Of a stretch of DNA of 64,000 nt, positions 9,913 to 58,088 are shown piece after piece. Origin of the DNA: Guillardia theta CCMP2712 (lineage: Eukaryota; Protista; Cryptophyta); NCBI RefSeq assembly GCF_000315625.1, contig NW_005434657.1:939430-1003429 (forward strand). Reading direction: 5' to 3'. Numbering within the stretch: the stretch's first letter is position 1; every line of letters starts with the position of its first letter. The position numbers were made by a program, and so were the translations under genes. The notes under the pieces were generated by a model that was not told the origin of the DNA, searched no databases, and saw only the letters and a program-made list of their open reading frames with translations.

Positions 9913-9934
9913 AATGGTTCCAGGCCCGCAAGTA

Positions 9935-12835: not shown

Positions 12836-14760
12836 TCCAGGTCCTGTAAGTACTCTAGCTCTGACCGCTGCAGCACTGGTTGGAGATCGCTCCATGAGGT
12901 GCCTGTGATCGACTGCGGCTCCTATGATGCAGTCTTCTGCGGTCTCTGATATCAGGCTTACTGTGCGAGATGAATGATGAAGAGCGAAGACATGGTCTAA
13001 TTTGGCTTGGTGGTGGCCCTGTTTGTACCATGTGGAGAAGGTGAAATGCGAACTGCTTCTGCTCATCTTTTCGCAGGTGACCATCTGATATCGCCCCAGC
13101 TCATTTAAGTTTCGTTCCATTTCCTCATCTGCGCGGTGCACGTTCCGAAGCGAGTTGCTCCCGTACCCTACTCTCGTGCAGATCTCTGCAAGCTTTCGAG
13201 ATAGGGAAATGTAACGTTCGCCAACAATATTGTTTCTTTTTTGCGGCCAACGTGTAAAACCTGTATTCTTTTTTGGGAGACCTCGCGCTCCTCTTCCATG
13301 GCGAAGTGCCATGGCAGGGGGGGGCGAGGTGCAAGGTCAGCATGCGCTAATGTCATGAGGCGTAGGTCACTCTTACCCTTTCTCCCGCCCCCCGTGCCTT
13401 TCGTGATAAATACTCGATAGCATCCCCATTCCTTCTTGATCATCGTTCGGAGAGCTATCTCTTTCCTCTTCCCCCCTACCAAGACCTCCTGCAGCATTAC
13501 CACACTCGGCTGGTATGTCTCGATCAGGTATCCCAAGATGTGTTTCAGCACAAACTGGCTGCACCCATTAACATTTTGAAAGATGATGTTGCCTGGGGTG
13601 TTATCCTTTCTGTGCATCTCCACCCATGATGGTTGCTCTGATCTTTCTGTTCGCATTGCATTGTGAGGTTTTCTACCTGTTGTTAGTACTTGTTCCTCTT
13701 CCCTATTGGCCCATTGAAGTTGATGTGGTACTCCCCTTCGATCTCTTGCCGGAGAGTGCGTCTCCTCCTCCTCCCTAGTTCCCCTTGCATCGTTCGAAGC
13801 TTGTTCTTTGTGCGTGCCCGCTGGGGGGAGCGATGTGGCCTGAGGCGGCGGTGAGTCCATCTGTTCTGACCTTTCATATGTCCGCAGGTCCGCCATGTTT
13901 CTTGCTTGCCACGATTCTTGCTCTCCCTGCTCCATCTCTTGTGCCTGGGTCACCTCTGCTGCTTGCCATTCCTTGTACCCTTTATCTTGCGCGTGTTGTA
14001 AAGCTCTGCAGATGCCTTTGATCGTTTCTCGCATGCGCACTTTTCCTGGATCCTCCACCCAAAGCGCATCCAGCAGCAGGTGCCTCATCCTCTCGAGCCA
14101 TTGCTGGGGTGGGGGGACGCCTTGCTGCCTACCTGTTTTTGAGATGTCTCGTTGTGTCGGTCTGTTTGTCTTAGCGATCAGCAGCAAATGCAACAGTATG
14201 AAGATCCCACAGTTGTGATTGTCTGTTTGTTGTAGCTCAGTTGACAGGTAAACCCGCCATGTCGTTGCATGTTCCTGCTGGTCGCTGAATGCCTCCGTGA
14301 CAATCGTCGCCGCGAGTGTGGCTAAGTCCATTCGTTGTGCGCCCTCCAGCTGAAACTGTGCCTCCCTTTGACTTCTGACAATCCCCAGGTCTCTCTCAGC
14401 CATGCTGAGTGAGTCAACAATGCGTATTCTTTTTGTGTCAAAATCTGCCATTAGTAAAATCCAATGATTGCCATTCTCTACGCACGGGAATAAGAATGGC
14501 TGAGCTGCCCCGGCTAGTAGTCGCTTTGCTCTCTTTGTCCTCCCCTCTTGATCTCTCAAACAAGCTACTATTCGCGGGAGGACAATAGTCCCTCTCGGCG
14601 ATTCGACCTGGTTTCTAGTTTGCGCGCTCGCGTACCTCTTGTCTCGTAGCCATGCTATTTGAAATCTGTCTTCCACTGGTTGGATACCTTCGCATTTGAA
14701 ATCTGTCTTCCACTGGTTGGATACCTTCGCTCGTCTGCACACTAGTGCCCTGGTCATCAT
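12836..14760 (-). mobile_element. Non-LTR retrotransposon fragment: Ulp1/C48-like cysteine protease plus AP endonuclease (frameshifted)
   Basis: NHWILL..IVDSL..QQTDNHNCG protease motifs, then FQNVNG, VMLQE, FTFSTWYKQ, AKLDHV and AVDHR APE motifs; clearly homologous to the 58.2 kb ORF. Confidence 0.8.
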
Positions 14761-14769
14761 AAGACCTGG

Positions 14770-15905
14770 CCTCCATCTGCCGTTGCCTGTCTGCTATAAA
14801 TTCGGACAGGTACCGCTGCCTGGCATCATCACCCCACTACGGCACCAGCGTCAATCCCTGCCCGCACAACTCCTACAGCCTTGCCGGCTCTATCTCTTCG
14901 GACAACTGCACTTGCAGATACGGCTGGCTGGCCGAGCTGGACTTGCCAGTACGGCAGCAACTTCTACAACTGCTCCGCTGGCAAGTCGTCCAGGAGCTTC
15001 GAACCTGCCCGGCAACAATGACGACGCAGTTTACTGGCAACACGACGATCAGCAACTGCGTCTGCGCTTCAGGCCTGACCTTCAACCTGACAGATCTATG
15101 CGTACCATGCCCGCTGGCGACCTACAAGACCAACTTCAGCCTGTACGGTTGCCAGCCCTGCCCGCGCTTCTTCACTACGTCTTACAACGCACAGTCTGCA
15201 CTTGTCCGAAGGGAAGCGAGCTAGATATCGAAAGCTGCAAGCTCTGTCCTGTTGGTGGGTACAAGAACACAACGTCGTTTGACTCCTACTACCCCTGTCC
15301 GCTCTTCTTCAGCACGGCTTAGAATGGCAGCACCAACTTCAACAACTGCAGCTGCGAAGCTACGTTCTACAGAGGAGCGGAGACTGTCTGCACTTGCGCG
15401 CTGGGCAAGACGCTCCACGGCGAAATCTGCGTCAGTTGCGACATCAACACCTACAAAGACTTCATCAGATACAATGCCTGTATCAACTGTTCGCCAAACT
15501 CCATAACGCTTTCCAACAAACCTTCGTCCTTTGATCAGTGTCTTGCTATCGCTGGCTATTACCGAAACGGAACCAACTTTTTCCAGTGCCCGCAAGCCAC
15601 CTACAAGCCCGCTGTCGGGAATACCAACTGCCCGATTGGCTCTACCACCTTTATACTGGCGCTACACTTGCGGCAAACTGCGTGTCGGATCTTGGATATC
15701 ACCAGAAAAGCGACGGAAGCTTCGCCGCCTGAGCCATCGGGACTTATTCCGACACGACTCTCATCAACACGACGTCCTGCAAGACCTGCTTCCTTGGTTC
15801 TACCACTGCCAGCACAACGGCTACGACTTCCAGTCTCTGCATTGCCGACCTTGGCTACTATGGCAGCAGCGGCGTTTTCATCCAGTGCGCTATTGGGACC
15901 TACAG
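14770..15905 (+). pseudogene. Cys-rich surface protein fragment 3 (GCC2/ephrin-receptor-like repeats, frameshifted)
   Basis: CVPCPLATYK..CQPCP, CKLCPVGGYK, CINCSPNS; ends CAIGTY at the LTR insertion. Confidence 0.75.
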
Positions 15906-16176
15906 TGTTGTATCCATGAGGATCCGGAACCACGGATACTCGTCGGATACTCTGCCGGATATTCCCTATATAGGCGGACGCATCTCGTGCGGACGGCCTC
16001 CTGAATTTCCCCCACTTGCATGCACAGTGAGTGTGGTGGTTGTGCGTAGTTTACCTCCTAGTAAACTTAGAGACTTCTATTTCCTGCTTCTCAATCTTCT
16101 TCATCCTTACTTTACTCGTGTCGTTGACAATCTCTGTGTTGTGTATACAACATTCTGGAAGCGAAGTGGTTGATTC

Positions 16177-17724
16177 ATGACCTCGAAACAAGGAAGAGGA
16201 GGAAAGAAACCTCAGCCGGAAAGGAGCCCTCAACCTCGATCTAAGCAATCAGGAGCATTTCAAACAGAAATTGCTGAAGAGAGTTCTGAGGAAGAAGTCG
16301 AATGGAGCGAGCGGCTGCAGCTGCAGCAGCAGCAGCTTTCTCCGAGTCAGACCAGTGGATCTTTGACTCAACCTTATAGGGATGGAGATGTACAACGTGA
16401 AGCGCTGTCTAGCGCGGATCAACGGGCCCGAAACAAGAGGGATACTCCCTTGCGAAGTATTCTGCGATCAGAGGAGGCAACTCAGAGAGCAGCCTCCCCT
16501 GCAACATCGGTACGTCTGCCAAGCTCGGAAAATTTTTCATCCGACCCCGTCATGTCCTCGCCAGTGGCGCAGGACCGAGCTCTTCTCCTTCTTCGTCGAA
16601 TGTGTGCCCTCCTGGCTGACACCACGCAGGACGAGCGTTTCCACATGCTCGCCAATGCTGCCGACGAATTTGCGACAGCCGGCGCTGCTGCAACACCAGA
16701 GCTCCCGCATCTCGCACGAAAAGTTACCCTGCAAGATGCTAATGCTGATATCTATTCAGCTGAGGAATCAGCTAGCGCTGAATCCTCTGATCAGGAACCA
16801 GTCCTCTCCAATCGGACTCTCGTGAATGTGCTAACGAACTCCAAGAGTTTCAATTCCAGCCGCATTCCGATGTACAAAGGTTTTGCTGATCCCCGCTCTG
16901 TCGAAGAATTCCTTCGTCAGTGCAACCGCGAATTAATCGCTCAAGAGATCCCAACTCGCAAATGGGTGAAGAGCATCACGCCGTTGTTCACCAACGAAGT
17001 GATGGTGGTGGTAGAACGTAAGTACGGAAAGAGTCTCGAGGCCATCAACAAGCTTAAATGGGATGAATTTTCAACTCATCTAAGTTCGTGTCTAGCCCCA
17101 ATGCGGCAAGCCAAGAATTATCAGACTCAGCTTGATCAGCTCAAGCAGCAGCCCAACGAATCCGCCTGGGCGTACTTGACTCGCGCCACGACACTCTTCG
17201 CAACGCTCGAATCGCAGGTAGGGTCTGCCATCCTGTACTTCAACGATCAGCCACTCCGGAAATTCATCAAGGGATTTTCGCATACGCCGACGCGCACGTC
17301 TATCCACACATGGTTTACGATTTATCGCAGTCAGTACGGACACGGAGAAGACATGTTCTCTCGCCTAGTCACTTTCATCACAGCTCTTCTGGACGATGGT
17401 GAACCGCTAACAGTGTCTAAGCAGCCTAACTCAGCTGCTGCTAACGCTGCGCAGACCTCTTCGCACACGAAGGCCAAAGCCAACGGTGGGCAGAACAAGA
17501 AGAAGTCCAACGGTAAAGAAAACCAGCGCAAGCAGAAGTCCATCCGTTGTTTTTACTGTCAAGAACCGGGTCACATCAAGCCGGACTGCGAGCAGTACAA
17601 GCGCGAAGTCGCTCTCCAACAGGAGCGCCATGCTGATGAGAAACTCATGGCAACCCAGCATGAACAGCATGTTCAGCTTTTAGCTGCTCTTCAACCGCTC
17701 GCGACGCGTGCGGGAAACGAGTAG
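16177..17724 (+). CDS. gag: Gag with CCHC zinc knuckle
   Basis: QLKQQPNESAWAY capsid motif, CFYCQEPGHIKPDC. Confidence 0.93.
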   Translation: MTSKQGRGGKKPQPERSPQPRSKQSGAFQTEIAEESSEEEVEWSERLQLQQQQLSPSQTSGSLTQPYRDGDVQREALSSADQRARNKRDTPLRSILRSEEATQRAASPATSVRLPSSENFSSDPVMSSPVAQDRALLLLRRMCALLADTTQDERFHMLANAADEFATAGAAATPELPHLARKVTLQDANADIYSAEESASAESSDQEPVLSNRTLVNVLTNSKSFNSSRIPMYKGFADPRSVEEFLRQCNRELIAQEIPTRKWVKSITPLFTNEVMVVVERKYGKSLEAINKLKWDEFSTHLSSCLAPMRQAKNYQTQLDQLKQQPNESAWAYLTRATTLFATLESQVGSAILYFNDQPLRKFIKGFSHTPTRTSIHTWFTIYRSQYGHGEDMFSRLVTFITALLDDGEPLTVSKQPNSAAANAAQTSSHTKAKANGGQNKKKSNGKENQRKQKSIRCFYCQEPGHIKPDCEQYKREVALQQERHADEKLMATQHEQHVQLLAALQPLATRAGNE

Positions 17725-17792
17725 CGGCGGCAGGCAACGAGAGGGGAGCATCACTTGCTCCTCCTGCCGCTGGTCTTTGCCCCAGCCCTCTC
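17712..17792 (+). promoter_or_regulatory. -1 programmed ribosomal frameshift signal
   Basis: G GGA AAC heptamer in the gag frame; downstream stem GCGGCAGG/CCTGCCGC with inner hairpin GGAGCA/TGCTCC and possible pseudoknot pairing GAGAGGG/CCCTCTC. Confidence 0.85.
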
Positions 17793-20700
17793 TTACCAGG
17801 TAGCAGCGCTTTACCTCCTCATCGGAGCTCGCTAAGCCATTTCGTGCTGCCGCCTGATCGGAACGCGTCGTGCTCAACGGCCGCGTCCCTTCCTACGGGT
17901 CAACTACATGTTTGCCCCTGCTTAGCCCTCAGCCGTGGCGACGCCTCCGCGCCGCTTCAGCTCGCCTTACCCGATCTTATTCGGCTCCCCGTTAGCGTCA
18001 GCTCTTCCCGAGTTCACGCTCACCAGACCGTTGCCCTGCTCGATCACGGCGCGACGATCAATATCATGTCTCAGCAGCTTTTTCAGCAGCTGGGCCTCTC
18101 CGAGACTCTGCTACAGCGTGATACGCAGTTCACCGTGCAAGTTGCGGACGACCGCCAAGTGCAAACCCTCGGCGCCGTCTCGCTCGCCTATCGCATCGGC
18201 CGCTTTTCAAGCAAAGATACGTTTCATATCTTGCCACGTTGTTCTCAACCCCTGATCTTGTCTCTCCAGTGGATACATCGCCACAACGCTGTATACGTTC
18301 CGCGGACCCGAGAAGTGTTCGTCGATTCCCCCAAAGCTCGACGAGCCCCTCCGATTAGCTTGCCAGTTCAGCATCAAGTGCCCTACAAGGACTCGGTCTT
18401 AGCTGTGACAACCGTCTCGCTCACCGATGCTCACGCTCTGCGCGTCGCCAATCCTAATGAGGAATGGTTCTTGTTGCACCTGCATGTCCCAACGACAGCT
18501 TCCGCCTCGGCCTCTTCCGCCGACCCGCCAGTGGGCGCCCCCGCTCACCTTGCTCAAGCCCTCTCTGAGGAATTCGCCGACGTCCTCGTCGACGACCTGC
18601 CGCAAGGACTTCAGATCAACCGTCCCCCTCAGTTTGACGCTCACATTCAGCTCAAGCCAGGGACCTTGCCCATCAACCGCAGGCCATATCGCATCCCCCT
18701 TCATCTTGAAGGAGAACTCCAGGCTACCATCGCGTACATGCTCGAACACGACATCATCGAACCATCCAATAGTGAGTTTGCCTTTCCTGTGCTTTTCAGT
18801 CGACGTCCCAACGATCCACGCTCCCCAACTGATCCCAAAAGCTACCGCTTTTGCTGCGACCTTCGCCGCTTGAACCAAGTCGTCTTGAATCAGCAGACCG
18901 CCGCAACTCCTACCGTCGATGAGATGTTGGAAAAGATCGCCGACACCGTCCGTCAAGGCAAAGCCCGTCGCAACACCGATGAGCAGCTATGCATCACTAC
19001 GCTTGATTGTATCAAGAGTTTTTGGCAGGTACTCGTACGTGTTCCTGATCGCCGATATCTCGCGTTCATCACACCGATTGGTCACTACCAATACAAGCGC
19101 CTACCATTTGGATTCATCACTGCCAGCAGCATATTCCAAGGATTCATCCAGCAGGTCCTCCATGATCTACCCCACACGTTTGCATACATCGACGACATCG
19201 TCATCGCTACGTATTCCACCTGGGAAGCTCATGCAGATCACGTTCGCGCCGTGCTTCAACGCTGTCGCGAGCATCAGGTCTTCCTTAAGAGAGAGAAAGC
19301 TCAATTCTTTCGCACTAGTGTTGACTTCTTAGGTCACCGTGTCTCCGCCGACGGCGTGACGACCCAACACTCCAAGACGGCGGCTATCTCCGCGTGGCCG
19401 CTACCGACGACTACTAAACAAGTCAAGATGTTTCTTGGACTAGCTTCCTATTATCGAAAGTTCATCCGCAACTTCTCGACAATAGCAGCCCCTCTGACTG
19501 ACCTTCTCCGCAAGGGCGCTCAGTTTCAGTGGACTGCAGCATGTCAAAGCGCGTTCGACAACCTCAAGCAAGCTCTGACGTCTCAGCCCCTCCTGCATCA
19601 CTTCGACCCGTCCCTTCCGACCGAAGTGCACTGCGACGCGTCCAATGTCGGGATAGGAGGCGTACTTCTACAGCAGCCTCCCAACGCCCCCGCCCGCGTC
19701 ATCGGATTCTACAGTCGTAAGTTGACTCCGACCGAACAACGCTATCACGCGACCGAACGGGAGTTACTCGCAATCAAGGATACCATCCTTTTCTTCAAGT
19801 TCTACTTGATAGGGACTCCATTCAAGGTCTTTACTGATCATCAAGCTCTTACGTATTTCCAGACACAGAAAGACATCAACAGCAGATTGATTCGTTGGCT
19901 TCAAACGCTCAGCGAGTTTGCAATCACCGAGTACTGTTACGTCAAAGGTTCTCAGAACGTCGTCCCCGACGCTCTCAGCCGTCAAGATGAAGTTCCCCTC
20001 TCGACTGCAGTCGCTCCTCATCACGAGCAACTCTCTCGTCAAGAGGACGGCTTCTTGCTCGCCTTCACCGTCAGCGCCTTGCAGCCTTTGTCGGACCAGA
20101 TTCAAGCCGCCTACGAGACGTGCGACTTCTGTCGTCCTCTTATCCACCGTCTCCGCGCCAAGTCTTCCGTAACTTCTTTTCATCTGGATGATGAGCTTCT
20201 GTTTTATACAGATTCGTTGCGCCGCATCCGCCTGTGCATTCCGCAAGCATTGCGTCGAGAAGTTCTCTTCCGCGCCCACGACCTTCAGTCCCACCTCGGG
20301 TTTTCAAGAACCTACCTTCAGCTAGCAGCAACTGTTTATTGGCCCCAGCTTCGGAAAGATACCGAGCTTTACATCCTGTCATGCCAGCATTGTCTTCAAG
20401 GGAAATCTTATCGACAACGACCAATGGGTACTCCTCATTCCCACGCCGTTCCCTCGACACGCTTCGAAGTCGTCAGTCTCGACTTGCTGACCGGACTCCC
20501 ACGAACTCGAGATAAGAACGATGCAATTCTTCTCTTCATTGACGAGTTCACAGGGCGAGTTTATCTCACCCCTTGCCGTAAATCGATTACTTCTGAACAA
20601 GCTGCTCAAAAATTCATCGAAACCGTATTTCGATCCCAAGGCCTTCCTCAAGTCCTTATCAGCGACAACGCTGCCATCTTTTCGTCCAGATTCTGGAACG

Positions 20701-21599
20701 CGCTCTTCAAGATGCTCAACGTTCACGTGAAGCATTCGTCGCCTTTTATGCCTCAAAGCAACGGTCGACCCGAGCGTATGAACTCCGTCGTCCTCGAAGC
20801 TCTGCGTATCTACACCACGCAGTATCCTCGAGCCGATTGGGATAGGTACCTCCCCATCCTGGAGACTCACCTAAACTCAGCTGTTCGCCGTCCCATCGGT
20901 GCCAGCCCTTTCGAAGTCATGTTCGGCAAACCTATCAGGACACAACTCTCTCTGCCCTCACCTGACGATCATCAGGACGAGACCCTCGACTCCATTCGTG
21001 AAGCAACCGAAGTCAGCGCCGAAGCTGCCCGAGCTGCTCTCGAAACTGCAGCGCGAGCCACCGAAGCTCGCCTTGCGCAGGCCCGTCGTCCCTGCCGCTA
21101 TCAAGTTGGAGATCTGGTTTGGCTCTCTACCGCCAACCTCAACATCCCCGACGCCGCCTCGAAGCTCAACCCTCGCTTCGTTGGTCCCTTCCGCATCCTG
21201 GAATTTGTTTCAGACAACACCGTTCGTCTCGACGTCTCTCCTCGCTTCGCATCGATCAGAAACACCGTCATCAACATCAAGTGGCTTCGTCCGCATACAG
21301 AGCGCGACCCTGCCTATCAAGATCCCCAGCGACCACCCGAACCTCTGGCCACCAGAGACGGCTTGGAATACGAGATCGAGAGCATCCTCAGCAAACGTCG
21401 TCGCGGTCGAGGTATTCAGTACCTTGTTAAGTGGACAGGCTATGATCAAGTCAGTGAGAACAATTGGCTCCCTGCCCGTGAGTTGCAGAAGAAATCAGGT
21501 CTTCGCGAACTCATCCGTCAATTCGAAGAACGTGAAGCTCTTCAAGCTTTACCCTCCAACGCCTTGGACTCCTCCGACTCGTCTGAAGTGGAACTTTGA
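17712..21599 (+). CDS. pol: Pol (PR-RT-RNase H-IN-chromodomain), in the -1 frame relative to gag
   Basis: LLDHGA protease, YIDD RT, HCDAS RNase H, H..H..C..C and D,D35E integrase, GPF motif, YEIESIL..YLVKWTGY chromodomain; frame is open back through the slippery site. Confidence 0.95.
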   Translation, partial: GKRVAAAGNERGASLAPPAAGLCPSPLLPGSSALPPHRSSLSHFVLPPDRNASCSTAASLPTGQLHVCPCLALSRGDASAPLQLALPDLIRLPVSVSSSRVHAHQTVALLDHGATINIMSQQLFQQLGLSETLLQRDTQFTVQVADDRQVQTLGAVSLAYRIGRFSSKDTFHILPRCSQPLILSLQWIHRHNAVYVPRTREVFVDSPKARRAPPISLPVQHQVPYKDSVLAVTTVSLTDAHALRVANPNEEWFLLHLHVPTTASASASSADPPVGAPAHLAQALSEEFADVLVDDLPQGLQINRPPQFDAHIQLKPGTLPINRRPYRIPLHLEGELQATIAYMLEHDIIEPSNSEFAFPVLFSRRPNDPRSPTDPKSYRFCCDLRRLNQVVLNQQTAATPTVDEMLEKIADTVRQGKARRNTDEQLCITTLDCIKSFWQVLVRVPDRRYLAFITPIGHYQYKRLPFGFITASSIFQGFIQQVLHDLPHTFAYIDDIVIATYSTWEAHADHVRAVLQRCREHQVFLKREKAQFFRTSVDFLGHRVSADGVTTQHSKTAAISAWPLPTTTKQVKMFLGLASYYRKFIRNFSTIAAPLTDLLRKGAQFQWTAACQSAFDNLKQALTSQPLLHHFDPSLPTEVHCDASNVGIGGVLLQQPPNAPARVIGFYSRKLTPTEQRYHATERELLAIKDTILFFKFYLIGTPFKVFTDHQALTYFQTQKDINSRLIRWLQTLSEFAITEYCYVKGSQNVVPDALSRQDEVPLSTAVAPHHEQLSRQEDGFLLAFTVSALQPLSDQIQAAYETCDFCRPLIHRLRAKSSVTSFHLDDELLFYTDSLRRIRLCIPQALRREVLFRAHDLQSHLGFSRTYLQLAATVYWPQLRKDTELYILSCQHCLQGKSYRQRPMGTPHSHAVPSTRFEVVSLDLLTGLPRTRDKNDAILLFIDEFTGRVYLTPCRKSITSEQAAQKFIETVFRSQGLPQVLISDNAAIFSSRFWNALFKMLNVHVKHSSPFMPQSNGRPERMNSVVLEALRIYTTQYPRADWDRYLPILETHLNSAVRRPIGASPFEVMFGKPIRTQLSLPSPDDHQDETLDSIREATEVSAEAARAALETAARATEARLAQARRPCRYQVGDLVWLSTANLNIPDAASKLNPRFVGPFRILEFVSDNTVRLDVSPRFASIRNTVINIKWLRPHTERDPAYQDPQRPPEPLATRDGLEYEIESILSKRRRGRGIQYLVKWTGYDQVSENNWLPARELQKKSGLRELIRQFEEREALQALPSNALDSSDSSEVEL

Positions 21600-21925: not shown

Positions 21926-23075
21926 CGATCAGATCGGACTTACTGTCTGCAAATCATGCGCTGCGGACCAGACAATGCATGGTGTCACGACAAGCCTGCA
22001 AGACTGCGGAGCTATGACTGGCAATTCGCTCTGCACGGGCGGACAGTCTAGCTATCACTCTGGCAATCACAATCTTGGTAACTTCATGCATACAAAACGC
22101 GTCGCAACGCGCTATTGGTGGATAGACTTTGGCAGCAGCAAGGATGTTCAGTCAGTAATGATGTGGAGTAGGAAAAGTTGCTGTTGGTTGCGAGATGGCG
22201 GTGACAAGATCTATGTTGGCAACTCTCTGACGCCTACCAGCAACAGTCTGTGTGGGGCAATAGCAGCATAGCTATGCCAACACTGTCAACTGCAAGTTCT
22301 CCGGTCGTTATCTGTTTGTTTACTTCAGCGGATACAATCCACAGCCCGATTATTGCATGAACTGTGCCAGAACTGCCCACTGGGTTATTTCCAACCGCAC
22401 AAACTGTAGCCCCTGTGCGATCGGCTTTTATCCTGCATTGACGATTGCTTTTGCACAATCTTCGGAATTTTATTTGGCAGGATCATCACGTCGGAAAGGA
22501 ATGCAAATTTCAGCCTATCAGAATGCCAATCAGAACTGCACGGATTGTCCCGCTGTGTACGAATGCCAAGCCTGCCCGGCCGAGAGCTATTCCAGCGCTG
22601 GCGCTTCCTTCTGCACGTCATGCCCGGCGCAGATGCGTAGCTCTAACTCCTCTACTACCATGCCTGCGACGCATTTCTGGCTGTGGATTCGGGTCTTACT
22701 GCAACAGTTCGATTGGACAGTGCGTTTTCTGCGAAGCTGGCAATCTAAGCCCTGCGTACGGATTAGCCAACAGCGGGCGATGCGACAACACCAGCAGCGG
22801 TACGGCGAACAAATGCCTGCTAACGGCGAAACTGGCTACTGCGCTGCTTGTCCTGCTGCGAAATATCTACCTTGGCCCAGATATGCAAGCTTTGGAGCCG
22901 ACCAATGTAAGAAAATATCGAAAACCTGTCCTACTGATTCATACATGAAAATATCTACTGGAAGTTTACCAACGCAGGCGGTGATCAAACACGGTACCAA
23001 GTCAATGTTACAGTGCCATCGTTAGTCGAGTGTATCTGTGGCGGTGGAGCCGGTGGTAACATAACATCTGGCTGC
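21926..23075 (+). pseudogene. Cys-rich surface protein fragment 4 with F-type lectin/discoidin-like domain
   Basis: Resumes in frame across the LTR TSD (CAIGTYS-DQIGLTVCKSC); HT..WWIDFG..V.MWSRKSCC..R..IYVGNS lectin-like segment; more CxxCP repeats with stops and frameshifts. Confidence 0.75.
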
Positions 23076-23079
23076 CTGT

Positions 23080-24795
23080 TGCGGTATAGATATTTCTTTA
23101 ACAAACGCCAATATTAGTTCATGACAGTGATTCAACGAGGCCTGTGGTAGCAGGGGAACAGGCTATTCCAGCTTTCGCTGTTGTAGCAGACGAAAACGTC
23201 TTGCAACATCAAGCCCCATTGGATCAATCGCCGGTGCAGCCTAGGGCGCGGCGAGGTCGCAAGCATCCTCAATCCAGAGCTGCAGAATTTTGTGTGAAAC
23301 GGCATGATCGGCAAGAATTCGACAAAACACGTACACGCATTCAGCAGAACAATTTATCGGAGAAGACCAGAGAGATGTATATGAATTACATGATACGCTT
23401 CATAGAATGGTTGTACTCGAATGAGATGATTTCAAAACGAAGATGCGTGAAGAACATGACAAATTCTTGAACGGATCAGATGAGGTGACAGAGCCGGCGA
23501 TGACAGACGAGGGCTTACCTACTACATCTTACATCGAGTCTGTAATGTCACAGAAGAACATTCCTCCCGTCTATTTTGACAAATTCACGCCAGTCATGTT
23601 TCTTGACTGGGTGACCTTTAAAGTTCAACAAAATCCAGATTTGACATTCCAAACATGCTCGTCTTACAAGTCAGGATTGATGCACATGCTGAAGAATTAC
23701 GGGGTTACACTGAGCATGGAGGCGGTGAAAACATTGAGCAGTGACTTCAGCCTGGATTGAAGCGAGCATTGAATCTTTCTCAACTTCCCGAGTCTTGCAA
23801 CCAAGATGCAAAAGTGATAACCGGCAAGGTTCCCATGTCATACGTTTTGTATTCAGTATTCGCCAAGGTTATGCTACAGAAACCAGAAAGAGAATATGTT
23901 TGGGCCAGAACCTTTTTGATTCTGGCTTGGAATTTTATGTCCAGATCCAGAAACGTATGCACACTTCTGTACAATCCCATGGAATATGTCGGGGATGCCT
24001 TGCGATTCTACGTAATTCACACGAAAAATGATCAGGCTGGTGAGAAACCGCGGGATCCAAAGCATGTCTATAGCAACCGTGTGTTCACCTGAAGTATGTC
24101 CTCTGCTAGCACTGGCTGAGAATGAGTTTGGGGTGGGGGGGAGGGAATCGTTCACTGGAATGACATATCACAGGCATGTACTTCTGCTGTTATGGATAAT
24201 CATACTGCTAGCGGTGGGCGTCTGTTCCCAGGTGAGCTTGCCATGTGGCCATCATCAACGGTCTTCCAGTAATCACGAGCATCAGGCACAAACCAGTATG
24301 ACAGATTTCGAAAGCTCTTCTGCAAGAGACTTCTCATTGCCAAGTTGCGGATGAGGAAGTAGCAGCTGCAATTCAAGGGAAGGGGTTGGATGCAAACGAA
24401 ATCGGTAACACGGCGCTTCATCCAAGGAGCAACACGCTTCATCCCTTCTGTTGCAGTGGGAGCACTGCTTGCCCGAGCCTAGCAGCAAAAAGCATTCGAG
24501 CAGGGTGGAAGCTTGGGACAATTTACGACACCTACCTGAGGTATGAAGCAGCGTCTGACTGCTACGTTGGACGCACAGTGTGCGATCTCCCCATGAATCA
24601 TGCGGACTTCGCCATCTTGCCACCATTCTTCAAATGTGAAAGCAGGGAAAGCAGAATGGAGGTAGACAGAGTCATAGATCAACTTTTCCCCAACCTGGAT
24701 GCGAAGAAGAAGTACATTGCAGAGCAGGCTATTGCGGCGGTGGTCTTGGATGCAGGCGTGAAGGCAGCAGCGGAGGACAAGTATGGAGAATGTAT
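23080..24795 (+). mobile_element. CryptonS-like tyrosine recombinase transposon (frameshifted, internally deleted)
   Basis: LILAWNFMSRS, HTKNDQAG..PKHVYSN, EVCPLLAL, CCSGSTACPS..IRAGW..DTYLRYEAASD.YVGRTV..FAILPPFF: CryptonS-type YR signature. Confidence 0.85.
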
Positions 24796-25426
24796 GGTTT
24801 CGTATCTTACCACATTGCAATATGACGCGATCATAATATGTTTAAAGTGTGGTTATCAGGAGGTCCTCTTGGTTGAACAGAACAGGCCTGTGATGTTGCG
24901 TAACAAGAAGGATAATTCACATTACAGTTATAAGCGAATAAACCATTTCAGGGAGTGGTGCAATCAGATCCAAGGGAAGGAGAGCACAGATATCCCCAAT
25001 GATGTCTTTGAGAAGATATTGAATGAACTGAAGAAAGAGAAGATAACAAACACCAAAGAACTGTCTTATAAGACAATGCGGAACATCCTTAAGAAGTTGA
25101 AGATAAACAAGTATTATGAGCACATCAATTACATAATAAACAGGATAAATGGTGTGCCTACCCCACAATTCTCGCCAGAGTTGGAGGAGAAGCTTTGCAA
25201 CATGTTCAAGGAGATACAGGGCCCATTCTTGAAACACTGTCCTCCCAATCGGAAGAACTTCCTCAGTTATAGTTATGTCCTCTACAAGCTCTGTCAGATA
25301 CTAGGTCAAGATGAATACTTAAAGCATTTCCCATTGTTGAAGAGCCGTATTAAGATTTTTCAGATGGATTTAATATGGAAAAACATATGTGAATCCATTG
25401 GATACCCTTACATTCCTAGCATATAA
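24796..25426 (+). pseudogene. NCLDV late transcription factor VLTF3, 5'-truncated and fused in frame to the Crypton ORF
   Basis: ICLKCG, YKRINHFREWCNQIQGKE, KYYEHI..I, RKNFLSYSYVLYK, FPLLKS..D.IWK.IC: VLTF3 motifs of Imitervirales-type viruses. Confidence 0.92.
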
Positions 25427-25466
25427 GTTTATACATAAAGAAATAAGACAAGAATAAAGACAAGAG

Positions 25467-26162
25467 ATGTCGGGTGAAACAGTATCTACTAAGGAGGTCG
25501 ATTATTTGGAAGAGGATGATCCTATCCGTGGACAGAACTATGTCTGTCTCTCCATGATCAATCCTGAAGACATCTTGATTGAAAAGGAGGCATTCTATTT
25601 CTCTAAGTTCATCACACAGTTCTCTAAAGACATGAACACCCTATTCAACAATCTCAAATTGAAGTTTCCTGAGTCTGCCGATCTTGTCGATGCTGTTAAG
25701 GACAGCAACAGCTATATATTTGATGCTGAACAGTTAGATGCTCAATATAAATTCTTCAAGTCTACATCAATGGATGAGGTGGAGAAGGAGTTCAATGAAC
25801 AGCATAATTTCAGGACCTCTGTCCGTGGAATCAAGATTAGAGGCGTCTATGATACCGTACAGGAGGCACGACACCGTTGCGAGGTCTTGAGAAAGAAGGA
25901 TGGCAAATTCGACATCTATGTCAGCCAGGTTGGTGTTTGGATCCCTATCTCGATTGATCCTAACAATGTACAGAATCAGGAGTGGAATGAGACACAATTG
26001 AACACTCTGATGATGACTTATAACAAAAACAAGGAAGCCAAGGATCAATTTTTTGCTGAGAGGAGCAAGAATCCGGGAAGCACCAACCCTATTCAAGAAC
26101 TCCAAGATGGCGTTGATCCCTGGGTACAAAAAAATATCACAAACGAGGTCATTGAAGACTAA
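25467..26162 (+). CDS. Conserved NCLDV hypothetical protein (VLTF3/A32 neighbour)
   Basis: DYLEEDDPIRGQNYVCLS, F.TSVRGIKIRG.YDT..EA, IYV.QVG.W, LN.LM..Y..N; intronless and AT-rich. Confidence 0.8.
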   Translation: MSGETVSTKEVDYLEEDDPIRGQNYVCLSMINPEDILIEKEAFYFSKFITQFSKDMNTLFNNLKLKFPESADLVDAVKDSNSYIFDAEQLDAQYKFFKSTSMDEVEKEFNEQHNFRTSVRGIKIRGVYDTVQEARHRCEVLRKKDGKFDIYVSQVGVWIPISIDPNNVQNQEWNETQLNTLMMTYNKNKEAKDQFFAERSKNPGSTNPIQELQDGVDPWVQKNITNEVIED

Positions 26163-26458
26163 TACTTCTTATTCACATTTATCTTGCATTTATTCTTAAT
26201 GATTATATTAGGATCAAATGATATATCCTGATTATCATCATCCTCATCATCATTCATCATTGATTTTTTCTGGTCATGCATGGCTTGCATGTCCCACAAT
26301 TCACTGTCACACATCTTGAAATCCTTTATTTGTGCTTTGTACCAAAACACCTGATCCTCTAGCTTGTTGCTGCTTGCCTTGTTGTTGATAACAAGACACT
26401 CATGATTCTCTGTGCATTGGTCCAGAGTCTGGCTGAATATATCAAAGGTAGGGAACAT
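26159..26458 (-). pseudogene. A32-like virion packaging ATPase, C-terminal fragment
   Basis: MFPTF..F...LDQCTENHECLVINN..SNKLEDQVFWYKA. Confidence 0.88.
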
Positions 26459-27430
26459 CCCAGAAGAACCTAAAACAGAATATCAAGAAGACCCGATGGA
26501 AAAGCATATACAACTCAAAGAACAGTCCACTGAAGAGAGACAACATGAGGATGATTCTCATAAAAAAGAGGAAGAGGTGAATGATTCTGTTCATAGAGTG
26601 ATAATTGATGATGATAATGACAAAGAAGAACAAAAGGCTCCATTATCCTCTGATATCAAGAATATTGTGATTAAGGATGCGTTTTTCTAAAAGGTAAAAT
26701 TTAGAAATCACAAAGTAAATGTATTATCTCTATTCACTTATTGTAAGCATCATTATATTTATCTTCATAGAATGGAGAAAACGATCCGCAAGACTTGAAA
26801 TGGATCAAGAATACAACCTTGGATTCAGTGAGGCAGGAAACTTTATTGCTCTTTATATCATAACAACGGCAATGTTGTACTTTGTCCATGTGATGTACAA
26901 GTCAAATCCCTCATCGAAAGAGACAATAGAAAACACACCAGTTCAAACACAATACAAGAGAGGGGGTGGCAACAATGATCTATTTGATTATAAGATACTA
27001 CAGAGAATCCCTGAAGAGGTCCATACAGGATTTGGCATACCTAATAAATTAGAATAGACCACTCTAACATGAAACACATCTTGTATGGCAGAAGTATGTA
27101 TGGAAGCCAAACAATCCAAACATAATATATAGATTCCAATCCACTGTCAAGAAGAACAAATGTATCATCACTGCCACACTTGTGTTCTGATTTGCAGGCA
27201 TCTCCGAATTTACAATACATTCCAAGGAGACCGAATATATATGAGATGAAGTGCTTGAAGAATCCTACAATCAAGAGGATATGTAATAATACGATAGATC
27301 AATGTTCATGATATGCCTGATGAATACAGATACAAAGATATACATGAAGACAGAATATATGCCAATGAAACATGTTGTTGATTTATTTTGTGATTGTTTT
27401 TTTATGATAGCACATAGTGTGTGCATCATA
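26459..27430. other. Small viral-like ORFs: acidic C-terminal fragment (to 26690, +), 112-aa two-TM ORF (26719-27057, +), frameshifted hydrophobic ORF (about 27041-27426, -)
   Basis: Compact, intronless, AT-rich ORFs between NCLDV core genes. Confidence 0.55.
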
Positions 27431-27520
27431 ATTGTATAAATTTCTTAGAGAAAGTAAATTTGAACATAATAATATTTTGTGTTATATAAATCTCACACTG
27501 TGAAAATGAAACCATCTTGT

Positions 27521-27799
27521 ATGAAGTTAGACTTAAGGAAGTTTGATCCATCAACAATGAAATCGGATTCAGTGGTTGTAGCAATCTCCAAGCGAGGTGG
27601 AGGGAAATCGGTCCTGTTGAAGGATATCCTATCTTATCACCAGAGCATGCCAATCGGGGTTGTGATCTCTCCAACCGAGCAGGCTAACAAGTACTTCCAG
27701 AAGTTTATACCAAAGATGTTGATCCACGATGAGTACGAAGCACCAATCATAGAGAAGTTTATGACCAGACAGATACAAAAGAACAACAAGGTGAACTAA
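27521..27799 (+). pseudogene. A32-like packaging ATPase, N-terminal fragment
   Basis: MKLDLRKFD..VVAISKRGGGKS (Walker A with first G replaced by S), PIGVVISPTE.AN.YF, IHDEY; truncated before Walker B. Confidence 0.88.
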
Positions 27800-27876
27800 G
27801 AACATAAAGGCCTGTTTCATGAATGGAAGGCATTACAAGATATTCTTCAGGCATCCCTCCAGCATTGAGAACAAAC

Positions 27877-27953
27877 AGGGTTTAGGGTTTAGTAGCCGGT
27901 AGGGCTTCGACAGGTTCCCCCATGGGGTTTAGGGTTTAGGGTTTAGGGTTTAG
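27877..27953 (+). repeat. Interstitial (TTTAGGG)n split by a 31-bp insert
   Basis: Repeats at 27877-27892 and 27924-27953. Confidence 0.95.
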
Positions 27954-28450
27954 AGCGCCGGTTATTTCAGGCAGCGCCGGTTATTTCAGGCAGAGCGCCG
28001 GTTATTTCAGGCAGCGCCGGTTATTTCAGGCAGCGCCGGTTATTTCAGGCAGCGCCGGTTATTTCAGGCAGCGCCGGTTATTTCAGGCAGCGCCGGTTAT
28101 TTCAGGCAGCGCCGGTTATTTCAGGCAGCGCCGGTTATTTCAGGCAGCGCCGGTTATTTCAGGCAGCGCCGGTTATTTCAGGCAGCGCCGGTTATTTCAG
28201 GCAGCGCCGGTTATTTCAGGCGAGCGCCGGTTATTTCAGGCAGCGCCGGTTATTTCAGGCAGAGCGCCGGTTATTTCAGGCAGCGCCGGTTATTTCAGGC
28301 GAGCGCCGGTTATTTCAGGCAGCGCCGGTTATTTCAGGCAGAGCGCCGGTTATTTCAGGCAGCGCCGGTTATTTCAGGCAGCGCCGGTTATTTCAGGCAG
28401 AGCGCCGGTTATTTCAGGCATTATTTCAGGCAGCGCCGGTTATTTCAGGC
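27954..28450 (+). repeat. 19-bp minisatellite (about 26 copies)
   Basis: AGCGCCGGTTATTTCAGGC unit with occasional 1-2 nt additions. Confidence 0.97.
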
Positions 28451-30651
28451 ACCATGGCTGCACGCGTGGTGTAGGGGAAGCTGCCAGGGCGCCAAGGAAG
28501 CTGCAAGCGAGAGGTTTGTATACTTCAAATAGCTTTCTAAGTATGGTTCTTCAGTATGATGAAAATGTTCGCAACCTGCTGTATCGGAGATCATGCCAAT
28601 ACACGCAGAGCGGACTTGTGGATGCCTCTGTCCTCGAAGCTGATCTCGTCGAGAGGGTGAAGAGCTTCGCGAAGCGTTATCCGAACATATCGCAGAAGCC
28701 ATCCGCTCGACATGTCAGCAGGCACGACGTGAGCTTCTCCAAGAAGCGATGACTGGATGGAGTGACGCATCCAGAGAGTGGTTTATGCAGCAGATTGAAG
28801 AAGCCAAGAAGGAGAAGGTCGAGACATACACCGCCTCAGCAGGCAACGAGGTGACTTCCTTCATCTCCATGACTCTCCTGGGCATCTCGTCGGTGTCAAC
28901 CATGAAGAAAAGCTGAAGAAGAAATTTGAAGAGATCGGACTGATCGTAGACTCAGTGCAAGAGAGTAAAGCAATCATGTGGAAGGCTCCGTATAGACCCG
29001 AGATAGCGAGTGCTGAGGAGATCCCGGTGACTGTTTCCTTCCTCCGCAATGCACAAGCGGAGAAGCTCTGGCAGGGAAGAGAGGACTTCGCGATTGATGG
29101 TCGCAAGTTCACAGCTGTACATGTGAGCATCGTGCACGATCGATCTTTCAAGATTCGAGCCAAGAGAGGACCCTGGGGCAAAGGGGGCAGCTTGGCAGAG
29201 CTGACTCACCTGCTAACCTTGGGCGGCATGACAACGGCTGAGATAGCTGCCGTCTATCGCTATCAGCTGCTGCGCCAGTCCCTTGCAGCGGTCCAACTCC
29301 AGCCGCTGGCAGGCATGCTGGTCGCTGGGGCGCCAGGCCAGCAAGTCCACAAAGGCTTAGGTCAGAAAGGCTTCATCGCTGTAGGGGCCAACGTCATCTG
29401 GAGACAGAGGGAGGTGGAGTGGATCGTCTCCTCGAGCTGCCCAGAGGCGAATGATACAGCATTTCGAGCTTTCCGAGAGAGCGAAGCGATGGAGGGAGTA
29501 CACCTGACTCTGTTCAGCGAGGACCCGAAGATCAGAGAGGCGCTCGCAGTCGAGTTGACAGCTGATCGCTTTGTGTCCAGAAATAAGGTGAAGAAGGCAT
29601 CAAGGATGCAGTCAAGTCGACGGCGGCATCTGGTCGCTTCACGAGGAAGGAGATGGAGGGGCTGTGCAACGGCGGCAACACGTCTATCGCAAGAGTCAAG
29701 AGAGTCCTGTTGGAGATCGCTAACAGGCTCGAGATCAACGTTGAAGGCATCGACATGGAGGAGGATTTGAACACCAAGTCCTGGAACGGGTCCAAGCTAT
29801 GCATCCTCCTCGGCTCCACGGAGGATGCTCGACGCATGCATCCTCCTCGGCTCCACGGAGGATGCTCGACGCGTGATGAAGGAGCTGCCCTTCTATCTCG
29901 AAGGCGCAGCAACCAAGCTCGAAGCAGTCGGCTTCGACAAGGAGCCTGACTCTGAGGCGGCTGGTCAGCGGGGCACCAGCGACGCAGCGCAGCGACAGGA
30001 GGAGAGCGAGGGAGAGTGGCTGGAGTTTACAGACCTGGAGAGGATCACAATGGAGGCAGCATCTCCGTCAAGCCAAGAGGACATGCAGCTCGTCAGCGAG
30101 CTGTCAGCAGTCATCGAAGATGCAGCTTCTTTGAACGAGGCGGGGACGAGCGAGCCGATCAAGCTGGTCCTGGACAAGGCCGTTGGCAACCTCCACGACA
30201 CCTTCTACTCTCCGGGGAGCCTGGAGTTCATGTCGCTGGGAGAGTGGGCGAAGATGCCAGAGGAGCAGGGAGTTGGGCGCAACGTTCTCAAGGAGAAGCT
30301 GGGGAAGTGGCTGCAGAGCAAGCGCTGGACTCGCGTGCAAGGAGAGAGCAAGAAGGCAAGGAGGGGCAGCGCGTTCTCGCCACGGGCAACGGCAGCTGCT
30401 GAGCTTGAGCAGGAGGCGGAGAGCGACGACATAGAGCGTCGATCTCTTAGCTTCCTGTTCATAGCACTGAGTAAATTCGCAGAGATGCATGTGCTGGCCT
30501 GCTCGCTGAAGGTGGACAAGAAGGACCGACTGCGAGTGGAGATGAGGGGAGATGACGAAGAAGAGGAAGACATGGAGGAAGAGCAAGGCGAGGGCGAGGA
30601 AGAAGACGGGGCGAGCCCGTACCGAGCTTGAGCTGAGCTCAAGGTAAGTAG

Positions 30652-30869
30652 AGAAGGTGGAGGCGACCGAAAGCCAAGGTGAGGAGAGGCAACTCTCCTG
30701 ACTGAAGCTGAGGAAGCTGAATGGAGGAGGAGTAGGTGGCGACCGAAGGCCAAGGTGAGGAGAGGCAACTCTTCTGACTGAGGCTGAGGAAGCTGAATGG
30801 AGGTAGAGTAGGTGGTGACCGAAGGCCAAGGTGAGGAGAGGCAACTCTCCTGACTGAGGCTGAGGAAGC
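30652..30869 (+). repeat. 76-bp 3' UTR tandem repeat (about 3 copies) with a GCAA tetraloop hairpin
   Basis: AGGAGAG-GCAA-CTCTCCT hairpin (one G-U pair in the second unit); also present at about 57870-58039. Confidence 0.9.
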
Positions 30870-31044
30870 CAAGAGAAGACAGCAGAAGTAGAGAGTAGAA
30901 AGACGCCTCAGAAGCAGGGTTCGCATTGTAGGCCGTGTACTCCAGGTGCTCGAGCGCCTCTTTAGACTAGGATCAAATTGCATAAGCCCACAACGAGGCC
31001 GAGCAACATTCTAGCATTCTAATAAACTCACATAATAATAATAA

Positions 31045-31328
31045 TAGGGTTTAGGGTTTAGGGTTTAGGGTTTAGGGTTTAGGACCGGGCCCCTGACAGA
31101 GGCACCGGGCCCCTGACAGAGGCACCGGGCCCCTGACAGAGGCACCGGGCCCCTGACAGAGGCACCGGGCCCCTGACAGAGGCACCGGGCCCCTGACAGA
31201 GGCACCGGGCCCCTGACAGAGGCACCGGGCCCCTGACAGAGGCACCGGGCCCCTGACAGAGGCACAGGGCCCCTGACAGAGGCACCGGGCCCCTGACAGG
31301 GGTTTAGGGTTTAGGGTTTAGGGTTTAG
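31045..31328 (+). repeat. 20-bp minisatellite (about 11 copies, 31083-31298) between two TTTAGGG arrays
   Basis: ACCGGGCCCCTGACAGAGGC unit; telomeric repeats at 31045-31082 and 31298-31328. Confidence 0.97.
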
Positions 31329-32702
31329 TAGACAACATCGCACATGTAGACATCATCGCACATGGTACTCATCGCACACACGATGAAAGAAATGCGAGAA
31401 TTGGTAGCAGTGGTGGATTCCTTCTGCAAATGGTCAGGACTGCAAATCAACAATAAGAAATCAGAGATAACCAGCTTCGACTATGCTCGCAAGGGAGAGG
31501 TTCCTGGTGCGAACAAAATAACGGTCATGGGGGAACCTGTCGAAGCCCTACCGGCTACTAAACCGTTCAAATATCTCGGCTATCGCATCTCTCTGTGGAA
31601 GGAAGAAAGACGAGCACCACGCTACGGATGTTTGAGGGAGACGACAGGAATGGAGGAAGCATACACCTCGGACTGATGTCGGAAGATGAAAAAATCCTCA
31701 AATGGTTCACTACTCAGGTTAGTGCAATCACCAGGGTAACGAGACAGCATCCAATTAGGTTGGACTTCTTGCCCGACGCGCTAGGAGCAGTACCACGAAG
31801 AGTGACCTATGAGGTACTGGTCAAGAGTAAAGCACAGAAGGGAAGGTTCACCAGAGAGGAAGCTGAACAGATCTGCGACGGGGAGGATCTCTCTATGGGC
31901 ATGACAATTCGAGGACTGAGACGGATCGTGGCGAGCTGGAAGGAGTCAGCGGCTGAGCACATCGTCAAGATCTCCTCGAAAGAAGATGTCGAGACCAACA
32001 GCTGGAACGGTGAACATCTAGTGCTCAGCTTCTCAGAAAAAGAAACGGCGATTGACATCCTCAGGTCCTTTGCGCCATGGGACAGGGCAGGGAAACTTCT
32101 TCTCCTAGAGCCAGGCAGTGCCAACATCTGGGAAGCGATCGCTACAGAACCCCCTACAGAGCCTCTTTGGGCTCAGGTAGATCTCGAACGGATCGAGAAT
32201 GAGATCAACATCCCAGAACCAGAGGCAAACGTGGTCCTCGAAGACATCTACAAAGTTCTAGAGGAGACTGTCAACCAGGGACAGAGTGCAGAAAACCAAG
32301 CTTGCAAACTCAGGCTCGATGGAGCCATCGTCGGCCTGTACGACAGCTTGTCATCTCCTGGAAATGCATGTTTTCCGACGCTGAAGGAATGGGCGGAATC
32401 ATCCTCGGCAACCCAGGACGACGACATGCAAGTTTTGAAGAGTAAGATTGCAAGAGTAAGCGAGCAGCATGCGTGGGAGACGGTAGCATCAAGAAGACGC
32501 CAGGGAGCCTTTGCAAAAGCAACAGGGAGAGGAGGGGAGAAACAACAAAAAGAATTTCGAACTGACCTGTTGTTTCTTGCCCTGAATAAAGTAGTTTCCA
32601 CAGCTACGCTAACCTACCAAGGCAGCGTTGGCTCGGGAGACGAAATTGAGTTTCTCTTGAGCAAGGCAGGATAGGGACTTCGGGTAGTACGTTACACCAG
32701 GC
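31329..32702 (+). mobile_element. Chimeric telomeric element: RT fragment joined to a diverged homolog of the RT-less element ORF
   Basis: 31360-31613 equals 60903-61156 (one mismatch seen); 31614-32674 shares HLxLxSEDxKI, KSxAxxGRFTR, TxSWNG, DLERI, KLxLDxAxxxLxDxxxSPG and LFxALxK with copies A and B. Confidence 0.88.
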
Positions 32703-32802
32703 NNNNNNNNNNNNNNNNNNNNNNNNNNNNNNNNNNNNNNNNNNNNNNNNNNNNNNNNNNNNNNNNNNNNNNNNNNNNNNNNNNNNNNNNNNNNNNNNNN
32801 NN
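32703..32802. other. Assembly gap (100 N)
   Basis: Run of N. Confidence 1.
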
Positions 32803-53222: not shown

Positions 53223-53372
53223 GGGTTTAGGGTCGTCGGGTTTAGGATTTTAAAGGTCGGGTTGAGAATGTAGGGTTTAGGGTACTTACAGGGTCGTCGC
53301 ACGGATTAGCGTAGTACGGTCGAGTGAAAGTTAGGGTCGTCGGGCTTAGGGTCGAGTCGAGTCGGGTTTTGG
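53223..53372 (+). repeat. Degenerate telomere-like repeats
   Basis: GGGTTTAGGG interspersed with TCGTC/GTCGG; a related 15-bp unit GTCGGGTTTAGGGGA occurs at about 55384-55436. Confidence 0.7.
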
Positions 53373-55596: not shown

Positions 55597-55655
55597 TTTA
55601 GGGTTTAAGGGTTTAGGGTTTAAGGGTTTAGGGTTTAAGGGTTTAGGGTTTAGGG
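55597..55655 (+). repeat. Telomeric array mixing TTTAGGG and TTTAAGGG
   Basis: Direct reading. Confidence 0.95.
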
Positions 55656-58039: not shown

Positions 58040-58088
58040 TTTAGGGTTTAGGGTTTAGGGTTTAGGGTTTAGGGTTTAGGGGTTTAGG
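58040..58088 (+). repeat. Interstitial (TTTAGGG)n
   Basis: About 7 units. Confidence 0.97.

Follow-up and report, generated by a model that had tools for sequence, protein, structure and literature searches.

How did a run of giant-virus genes come to stand in the genome of the cryptophyte Guillardia theta CCMP2712, and what was its source? We analyzed a window of 64,000 nucleotides (RefSeq assembly GCF_000315625.1, contig NW_005434657.1, positions 939,430 to 1,003,429 of the forward strand; all positions below are those of the window), in which a first-pass annotation, made from the letters alone, had marked an endogenous cluster of Nucleocytoviricota core genes: the late transcription factor VLTF3, a neighboring open reading frame (ORF), and two pieces of the A32 packaging ATPase. 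That annotation started the viral sequence at 24796; contig ends from run X9, which is labelled as a freshwater metagenome, put the start at 24804. The account that we consider probable is that 24804-27876 is a 3.1-kb fragment of an Imitervirales IM_12 virus, cut within genes, carrying one inversion and ligated at a chromosome break, and that it is likely recent and likely inert. The break site likely had a Crypton-like transposon on one side and telomere-type repeats of the cryptophyte on the other.

Composition and gene content

The GC content of 24804-27876 is 37.4% compared with 51.8% in the rest of the window, and the lowest value among 549 other windows of the same size is 44.1%. The GC profile thus confirms the AT-rich stretch, but of the two edges that had been described as abrupt, the left one is gradual because the adjoining Crypton remnant has a GC content of 42-54%. 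Six gene pieces occupy 83% of the stretch and none of them requires introns, as the description of intronless, tightly packed ORFs had it. The observed/expected ratio of CpG is 0.37, compared with 0.78 in the host and 0.53-0.97 in nine related viral loci; since the viral pieces from X9 are near-identical, the low CpG likely stems from the donor virus. Core genes are present, but what was called a gene cluster is a broken scrap of 3 kb and not a set of working core genes. The stretch is made up as follows:

24804-25426, plus strand: VLTF3 late transcription factor, 3' half, 206 residues (PF04947)
25467-26162, plus strand: DUF5832 gene, intact, 231 residues (PF19150)
26159-26461, minus strand: A32 packaging ATPase, C-terminal ~100 residues, in the donor's original orientation (75% identity to residues 186-285 of the relative P0241)
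26462-27876, strand not applicable: inverted segment, 1415 bp, both breakpoints within genes (joint in an X9 contig and gene order of locus L269)
26462-26690, plus strand: C-terminal ~75 residues of an unnamed viral gene, here 'gene X' (synteny in relatives and an X9 piece)
26719-27057, plus strand: small predicted membrane protein, intact, 112 residues (48% and 37% identity to P0275 and P0276)
27058-27505, strand not applicable: variable spacer, longest open frame at most 82 residues, without protein match (some X9 contigs skip 27058-27394)
27506-27876, plus strand: N-terminal part of A32, in three pieces (alignment to P0241)

The VLTF3 piece matches profile PF04947 (E 2.7e-49) over positions 2-165 of 168. 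It is truncated at its 5' end, with the first ~200 of ~400 residues gone and the whole Pox_VLTF3 domain kept. The neighboring ORF, which had been noted to look intact, is indeed an intact DUF5832 gene (PF19150, E 5.6e-22); its stop codon overlaps that of A32 on the opposite strand, and its product is 87%, 79%, 75% and 71% identical to P0121-P0124 and at most 59% identical to the other 116 relatives listed. Two viral genes extend the earlier list, the tail at 26462-26690 and the membrane ORF at 26719-27057. The gene X tail has no direct protein match, and the gene just upstream of the membrane ORF in the relatives has a similar C-terminus (15 of the 26 ORFs in that position end in FF); an X9 piece covers 26479-26619 with 2 differences and has a loose end at 26461. 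Minus-strand frames within 27044-27361 gave no relatives.

Integration into the host genome

The viral stretch is integrated in the strain and is not contamination. DNA run X1 holds one contig of 3149 nt that matches 24766-27914 with 0 differences, reaches 38 letters past each viral end and also crosses the inversion point; its depth is 95.8 compared with 78.8 for the host flank contig, as expected of a single copy. Runs X5, X6 and X10 (studies P3 and P4) each hold one 0-difference contig across 24804. Four runs from three studies therefore span the left junction and X1 also spans the right one, with contigs rather than long reads, and these contigs may come from one clonal strain, X1 possibly being related to the assembly itself. 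The count leaves aside runs X2-X4 and X8, which may be the source of the assembly, and the small-share runs X14, X16 and X17. Both checks that the first-pass annotation had proposed here, spanning of the junctions (their failure was to indicate contamination) and read coverage, thus speak for integration. Viral best matches, spanned junctions, single-copy depth, composition and gene order together characterize the stretch as an endogenous Nucleocytoviricota fragment.

That the assembly joined host DNA to a contaminating virus is highly improbable. Both flanks are repetitive and so invite misjoins, and there is a scaffold gap 5 kb further right; against such a chimera stand the 0-difference contigs over both junctions, the single-copy depth, and the state of A32, which, broken and inverted, would be useless to a free virus.

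A split A32 gene and one inversion

The A32 pieces align at 75-88% identity to P0241, a full-length relative of 285 residues; in one comparison the two pieces stand at 75-77%. By themselves they match no Pfam family in a profile search, and the Pfam cut-off for Pox_A32 is passed by just one of 16 A32 relatives, with P0241 itself below it; the Atlas clusters nearest to P0241 are 100% viral and carry Pox_A32 on 22-98% of their members. For P0241 no relative of solved structure was found by sequence, and PHROGs gave only a weak terminase match. The N-terminal pieces correspond to P0241 residues 1-97, 130-146 and about 155-163, while residues 98-129, about 147-154 and 164-185 are missing. Residues 98-129 presumably hold the Walker B motif. 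Both annotated pieces are A32, but they are parts of one split gene on opposite strands, the C-terminus on minus and the N-terminus on plus, 1 kb apart. We also considered two A32 copies or paralogs and rejected them, as the pieces are non-overlapping parts of one protein. A working A32 has Walker A and Walker B in one frame; here the gene is spread over two strands and has lost residues 98-129 and 164-185. The Walker A region at 27580-27612 differs from P0241 at several residues. Since the X9 piece over 27580-27715 shows just 2 differences from the window, this odd form likely goes back to the donor virus rather than to decay.

A single inversion of 26462-27876 accounts for the A32 layout. 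It was first predicted from sequence, and later a 4177-nt contig from X9 was found to join 26461 to 27848 on opposite strands. The gene order of relatives agrees: in a survey of 347 loci, a redundant set, DUF5832 follows VLTF3 in 147 of the 181 loci that hold both, DUF5832 and A32 stand tail-to-tail in 24 of the 76 that hold both, and a homologue of the membrane ORF lies upstream of A32 in 26 of 113 A32 loci. Locus L269 has the complete donor order, which runs gene X, membrane gene, A32 and, on the opposite strand, DUF5832 and VLTF3. The contig that carries P0273, P0121, P0241 or P0275 is in each case 4177 nt long, and for P0123, P0242 and P0276 it is 2397 nt long; each set presumably shares one contig. 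In genomes of g301 (loci L274 and L285), DUF5832 and A32 run head-to-tail, with the membrane gene downstream on the other strand.

The junctions

The sequences that flank the insert are the following:

23117-24803, plus strand: left flank, remnant of a Crypton-like transposon (tyrosine recombinase, NDC10_II type), frameshifted and internally deleted (weak Phage_int_SAM_4 / Ndc10_N match)
27877-27953, plus strand: right junction, TTTAGGG-type repeat, a 39-bp piece and four further TTTAGGG units
27954-31083, plus strand: right flank, repeat element that starts with a 19-bp tandem array and ends on TTTAGGG repeats (second copy at ~55655-58088)

On the left, Crypton contigs from X9 depart at 24804 and viral contigs begin to match there, with a one-base overlap. 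'Crypton' is the name that we take to fit this kind of transposon; the remnant matches Atlas clusters in which 72% and 16% of the members carry NDC10_II (score 0.96-0.97), has multi-copy depth in X1 and X9, and has a paralog at 9335-9918 on the minus strand. A search for its continuation to the right of the insert found none. The remnant reads in frame into VLTF3 as one open frame of 374 codons (24302-25426), and the window's 210-residue protein P0001, which is present in NCBI, UniRef, nr and EukProt, starts at an ATG at 24794, on the Crypton side of the junction. The annotated VLTF3 gene is thus present as to its domain, but only as a 3' half fused in frame to the transposon remnant.

On the right, the viral end lies inside A32 and abuts TTTAGGG repeats. 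The 39-bp piece recurs without a difference, in reversed orientation, within reverse-transcriptase sequence at 31526-31564 and 61069-61107. We looked at the insert ends for terminal (inverted) repeats and a target-site duplication and found none; compared with each other, the ends match at 12 of 30 bases, with a longest direct repeat of 5 nt and no integrase signature.

The donor lineage

To place the donor, VLTF3 and A32 were compared with viral genomes, as the first-pass annotation had recommended. Over 206 columns the VLTF3 piece is 98% identical to P0273, 95% to P0002 and 94% to P0003 from the cryptophyte Hanusia phi, and the next relatives are at 76%. In protein searches the closest named relatives are likewise from Hanusia phi (VLTF3 90%, DUF5832 79%), which fits the proposal of a giant virus infecting this host lineage. 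In the VLTF3 tree (65 rows, cut from 174 at 90% identity; long-branch warnings touch other rows), the window, P0273, P0002 and P0003 form a clade with support of 100/98, nested in a group of g300 and g301 genomes that itself has support of 100/100. In the tree of VLTF3 and DUF5832 together (45 rows), the window clade stands with g301 and g302 (100), apart from g300 (85). Of 30 genome names, 21 were found in file 1 of PMC8575486, where 17 are labelled IM_12, 3 IM_07 and 1 IM_01. Among the labelled genomes at the top of the scan, 12 of 15 are IM_12, and the VLTF3 matches are all IM_12; the outgroups of the trees are IM_07 and IM_01 only, and the rows contain neither Budvirus itself nor cultured isolates. 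The fragment holds two of seven phylogenomic markers. Forcing the window clade together with six genomes listed beside Budvirus was rejected (approximately unbiased (AU) test, p 5.8e-7), in a test on 27 of the 45 rows (18 dropped) that was chosen after the tree was seen. These gene comparisons place the predicted donor in Imitervirales IM_12, within the g300-g302 radiation, as an unnamed lineage. The view that these are Nucleocytoviricota core genes of Imitervirales type is borne out as well, since the best matches are viral or virus-like.

Scans of IMG/VR and JGI metagenome contigs found no close members of the clade (best VLTF3 match 76%, with 50 of 64 parts scanned); with the clade-specific C-terminus of VLTF3 the best matches were 64% and 72%, with DUF5832 at most 53%, and a further scan gave none. 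In Hanusia phi, P0003 and P0122 carry the same transcript number and near-consecutive identifiers. They therefore likely come from one multi-gene contig, which could be read-through RNA, or else DNA that belongs to a virus or an insert in the culture.

A near-identical relative in run X9

At 95% likeness, 73 records fall on 24300-27950, with cover in 26 of 30 bins. For the viral part, seven pieces listed from X9 show 15 differences in 1125 bases, with 69 further pieces from four runs standing outside this count, while the X9 host flank shows 16 differences in 1342 bases (98.8% identity) at a depth of 43.3. The X9 contigs continue unbroken at every scar in the window's copy, namely 24804, 26461, 27795/27796 and 27848. 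Among the coding differences listed, 12 of 15 are synonymous, compared with 19-25% expected without selection (p 6e-7 to 1e-5), and with two residue-changing sites added the count is 12 of 17 (p up to 8e-5). A Crypton contig from X9 passes through 24804 into Crypton sequence, without virus. In run X13, four records of 151 nt fall in VLTF3 and DUF5832 and differ from the window at 0-2 positions.

X9 is most simply read as a mixture of a replicating virus population and a host strain without the insert. The ~99% identity, the mostly synonymous differences and the Crypton contig without insert make a recent insertion likely, and likewise a donor lineage that is extant. Slow decay of an old insert was considered too and is disfavored by the point divergence of ~1%.

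Expression and possible domestication

In 6% of raw RNA run X18 (764 M letters), the depth over 24786-27950 is 0-0.38, and reads of the Crypton paralog reach 40. A search for runs that carry the stretch returned no RNA run among those listed. X5, X6 and X10 give no cover on DUF5832, which we did not use as evidence; that these three are RNA runs is a guess.

Domestication, with the Crypton-driven, truncated VLTF3 and the intact DUF5832 serving the host, is very unlikely. The Pox_VLTF3 domain is kept whole, its frame is open and takes its start codon from Crypton sequence, there are possible transcripts across this junction, and DUF5832 and the membrane ORF are intact, all of which would suit a host function; yet open frames are expected without selection at ~1% divergence, and the depth in X18 is near zero. 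Moreover, the differences at 24900 and 25683, found against all X9 contigs there, alter residues that are conserved in the closest relatives, and the window's private changes, at 2 of 206 and 9 of 228 columns, are at least as frequent as those of the relatives.

Origin of the insert

We propose that viral DNA was present in the cell during an infection that the cell survived, and that end-joining repair would have fitted it into a broken chromosome, in a region that is rich in repeats and possibly subtelomeric. The absence of terminal repeats and of a target-site duplication, the one-base overlap on the left and the short templated piece on the right point to end-joining. As the point divergence is just ~1%, the inversion and the deletions may have arisen at capture or soon after. 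The donor lineage would then infect Guillardia/Hanusia-type cryptophytes.

Several observations weigh against this account. The viral divergence in X9 (1.3%) is close to that of the host flank (1.2%), and the depth of the 4177-nt X9 contig (41.3) is close to that of the host flank (43.3), as inherited copies would show; the X9 data suit free virus and provirus alike. The empty Crypton site in X9 is suggested rather than shown, because several Crypton copies are present there (depth 147 compared with 43). The repair mechanism is read from the shape of the junctions, and a larger provirus that was trimmed gives similar ends. As to the donor, the A32 tree (54 rows) puts the window clade next to g300 with weak support (81), and so disagrees on neighbors with the tree of VLTF3 and DUF5832, which favors g301/g302. 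The tie to host genes on the right depends on scaffolding because of the 100-N gap at 32703. Finally, the host flank at 22000-23000 is also almost without reads in X18, which makes it a weak single-copy control, and X5, X6 and X10 cover the Crypton-VLTF3 junction and the 5' part of A32 at depths of 3-28; the viral stretch may not be fully silent.

Some of these points suit a different origin, in which the locus is the relic of a whole integrated provirus that was cut to 3 kb, and relatives of the host carry, and may reactivate, the full element. The matching divergence and depth of virus and host flank in X9 would follow from it, and cultures of Hanusia phi contain transcripts for VLTF3 and DUF5832 proteins of this clade, both full-length. 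There is precedent in Chlamydomonas, where a latent virus is described as leaving relics at other loci (10.1101/2024.09.03.611062) and giant endogenous viral elements are drawn inside IM_12 (PMC10960955 Fig. S5). However, the insert has neither the terminal inverted repeats nor the target-site duplication, and the X9 Crypton contig shows no viral junction. The mostly synonymous differences suit a replicating virus and not an inert inherited copy, and the X9 variants occur at depths from 7 to 170, as in a virus population. According to PMC12220804, eleven other strains, cryptophytes among them, showed no giant endogenous elements, and PMC5294986 lists G. theta with one of five core genes. The locus itself, at 3.1 kb, is far from a giant endogenous viral element, which spans hundreds of kilobases with polymerase and capsid genes. 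We regard a provirus as an unlikely origin, though one to be kept in mind, and prefer capture of a fragment by repair.

A bolder idea, which we hold to be doubtful, is that the unnamed IM_12 lineage, distinct from Budvirus, persists latently or chronically in Guillardia/Hanusia-type cryptophytes and that the locus is its scar. Equally tentatively, Hanusia phi cultures would then be transcribing late genes, and the wild Guillardia-like population of X9 would have intact copies at host-like depth. If true, the model cryptophyte would have a giant virus of its own that could be recovered.

Surroundings of the insert

The first 32702 bases of the window contain no gap and hold eukaryotic genes to the left of the insert; the 100-N scaffold gap follows at 32703-32802, 5 kb to its right. 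Heptamers of TTTAGGG/CCCTAAA, 28 of 30 on the plus strand, cluster at 27881-27953, 31045-31328, 53226-53346, 55384-55655 and 58039-58088, where they flank copies of the repeat family and pieces of a non-long-terminal-repeat (non-LTR) reverse transcriptase; they look like telomere-repeat-associated retroelements or buried chromosome ends. At 16174-21599 lies a Ty3/Gypsy-type retroelement with gag and an open pol of 1251 residues that ends in a chromodomain. A frame of 541 residues at 13168-14793 on the minus strand, with a weak match to an Ulp1-type protease followed by an endonuclease-like start, is likely a retroelement ORF, and an exon at 48433-49047 with a weak bacteriorhodopsin-like match (PF01036, E 3e-5) likely belongs to a cryptophyte microbial rhodopsin.

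Comparison with known systems

Short giant-virus inserts in protist genomes are already well known. What is new here is a host link for a virus clade known only from metagenomes, to Guillardia/Hanusia cryptophytes, by three lines: the insert, the Hanusia transcripts and the co-occurrence with host-like DNA in X9. With a donor this close, the way in which a viral scrap is rearranged at capture can also be followed, before point mutations accumulate. In the literature searched, which did not cover subscription papers, we found no published description of the locus structure, its family placement or a living relative. A paper by Filee from 2014 may mention the G. theta locus.

Table 1 of PMC5294986 (Gallot-Lavallee & Blanc 2017) gives Guillardia theta one Mimiviridae-type VLTF3 only and also has Hanusia phi, among transcriptomes. 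Since the window's 210-residue protein sits in public databases, the tabulated VLTF3 is likely the window's gene; the match is to the table entry, which gives no ATPase and no context for the G. theta locus and predates IM_12. Insertions in Acanthamoeba, as described in PMC12210455, share several traits with the locus: they are incomplete pieces of viral DNA close to mobile elements and telomeric repeats, without mobility genes or obvious terminal repeats, strain-specific and poorly expressed. Here, in contrast, there is one 3-kb piece, in another host supergroup and from another virus family.

The latent virus of Chlamydomonas reinhardtii (10.1101/2024.09.03.611062) is another case of giant-virus DNA that is integrated in an alga and has left relics at other places in its genome, but it is reported with 617 kb, terminal inverted repeats, a 6-bp target-site duplication and particles, none of which is found here. 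Budvirus of Rhodomonas lacustris (PMC10960955) shares with the fragment its place in IM_12, a cryptophyte host and a similar GC content (36.7% compared with 37.4%). It is a lytic isolate. The window clade stands apart from the six genomes that are listed next to Budvirus. For photosynthetic cryptophytes, the same paper (PMC10960955) names just Budvirus as a sequenced virus, along with one unsequenced isolate. A second lineage, in a model host whose genome is sequenced, thus gives efforts at genome recovery and virus isolation a concrete aim.

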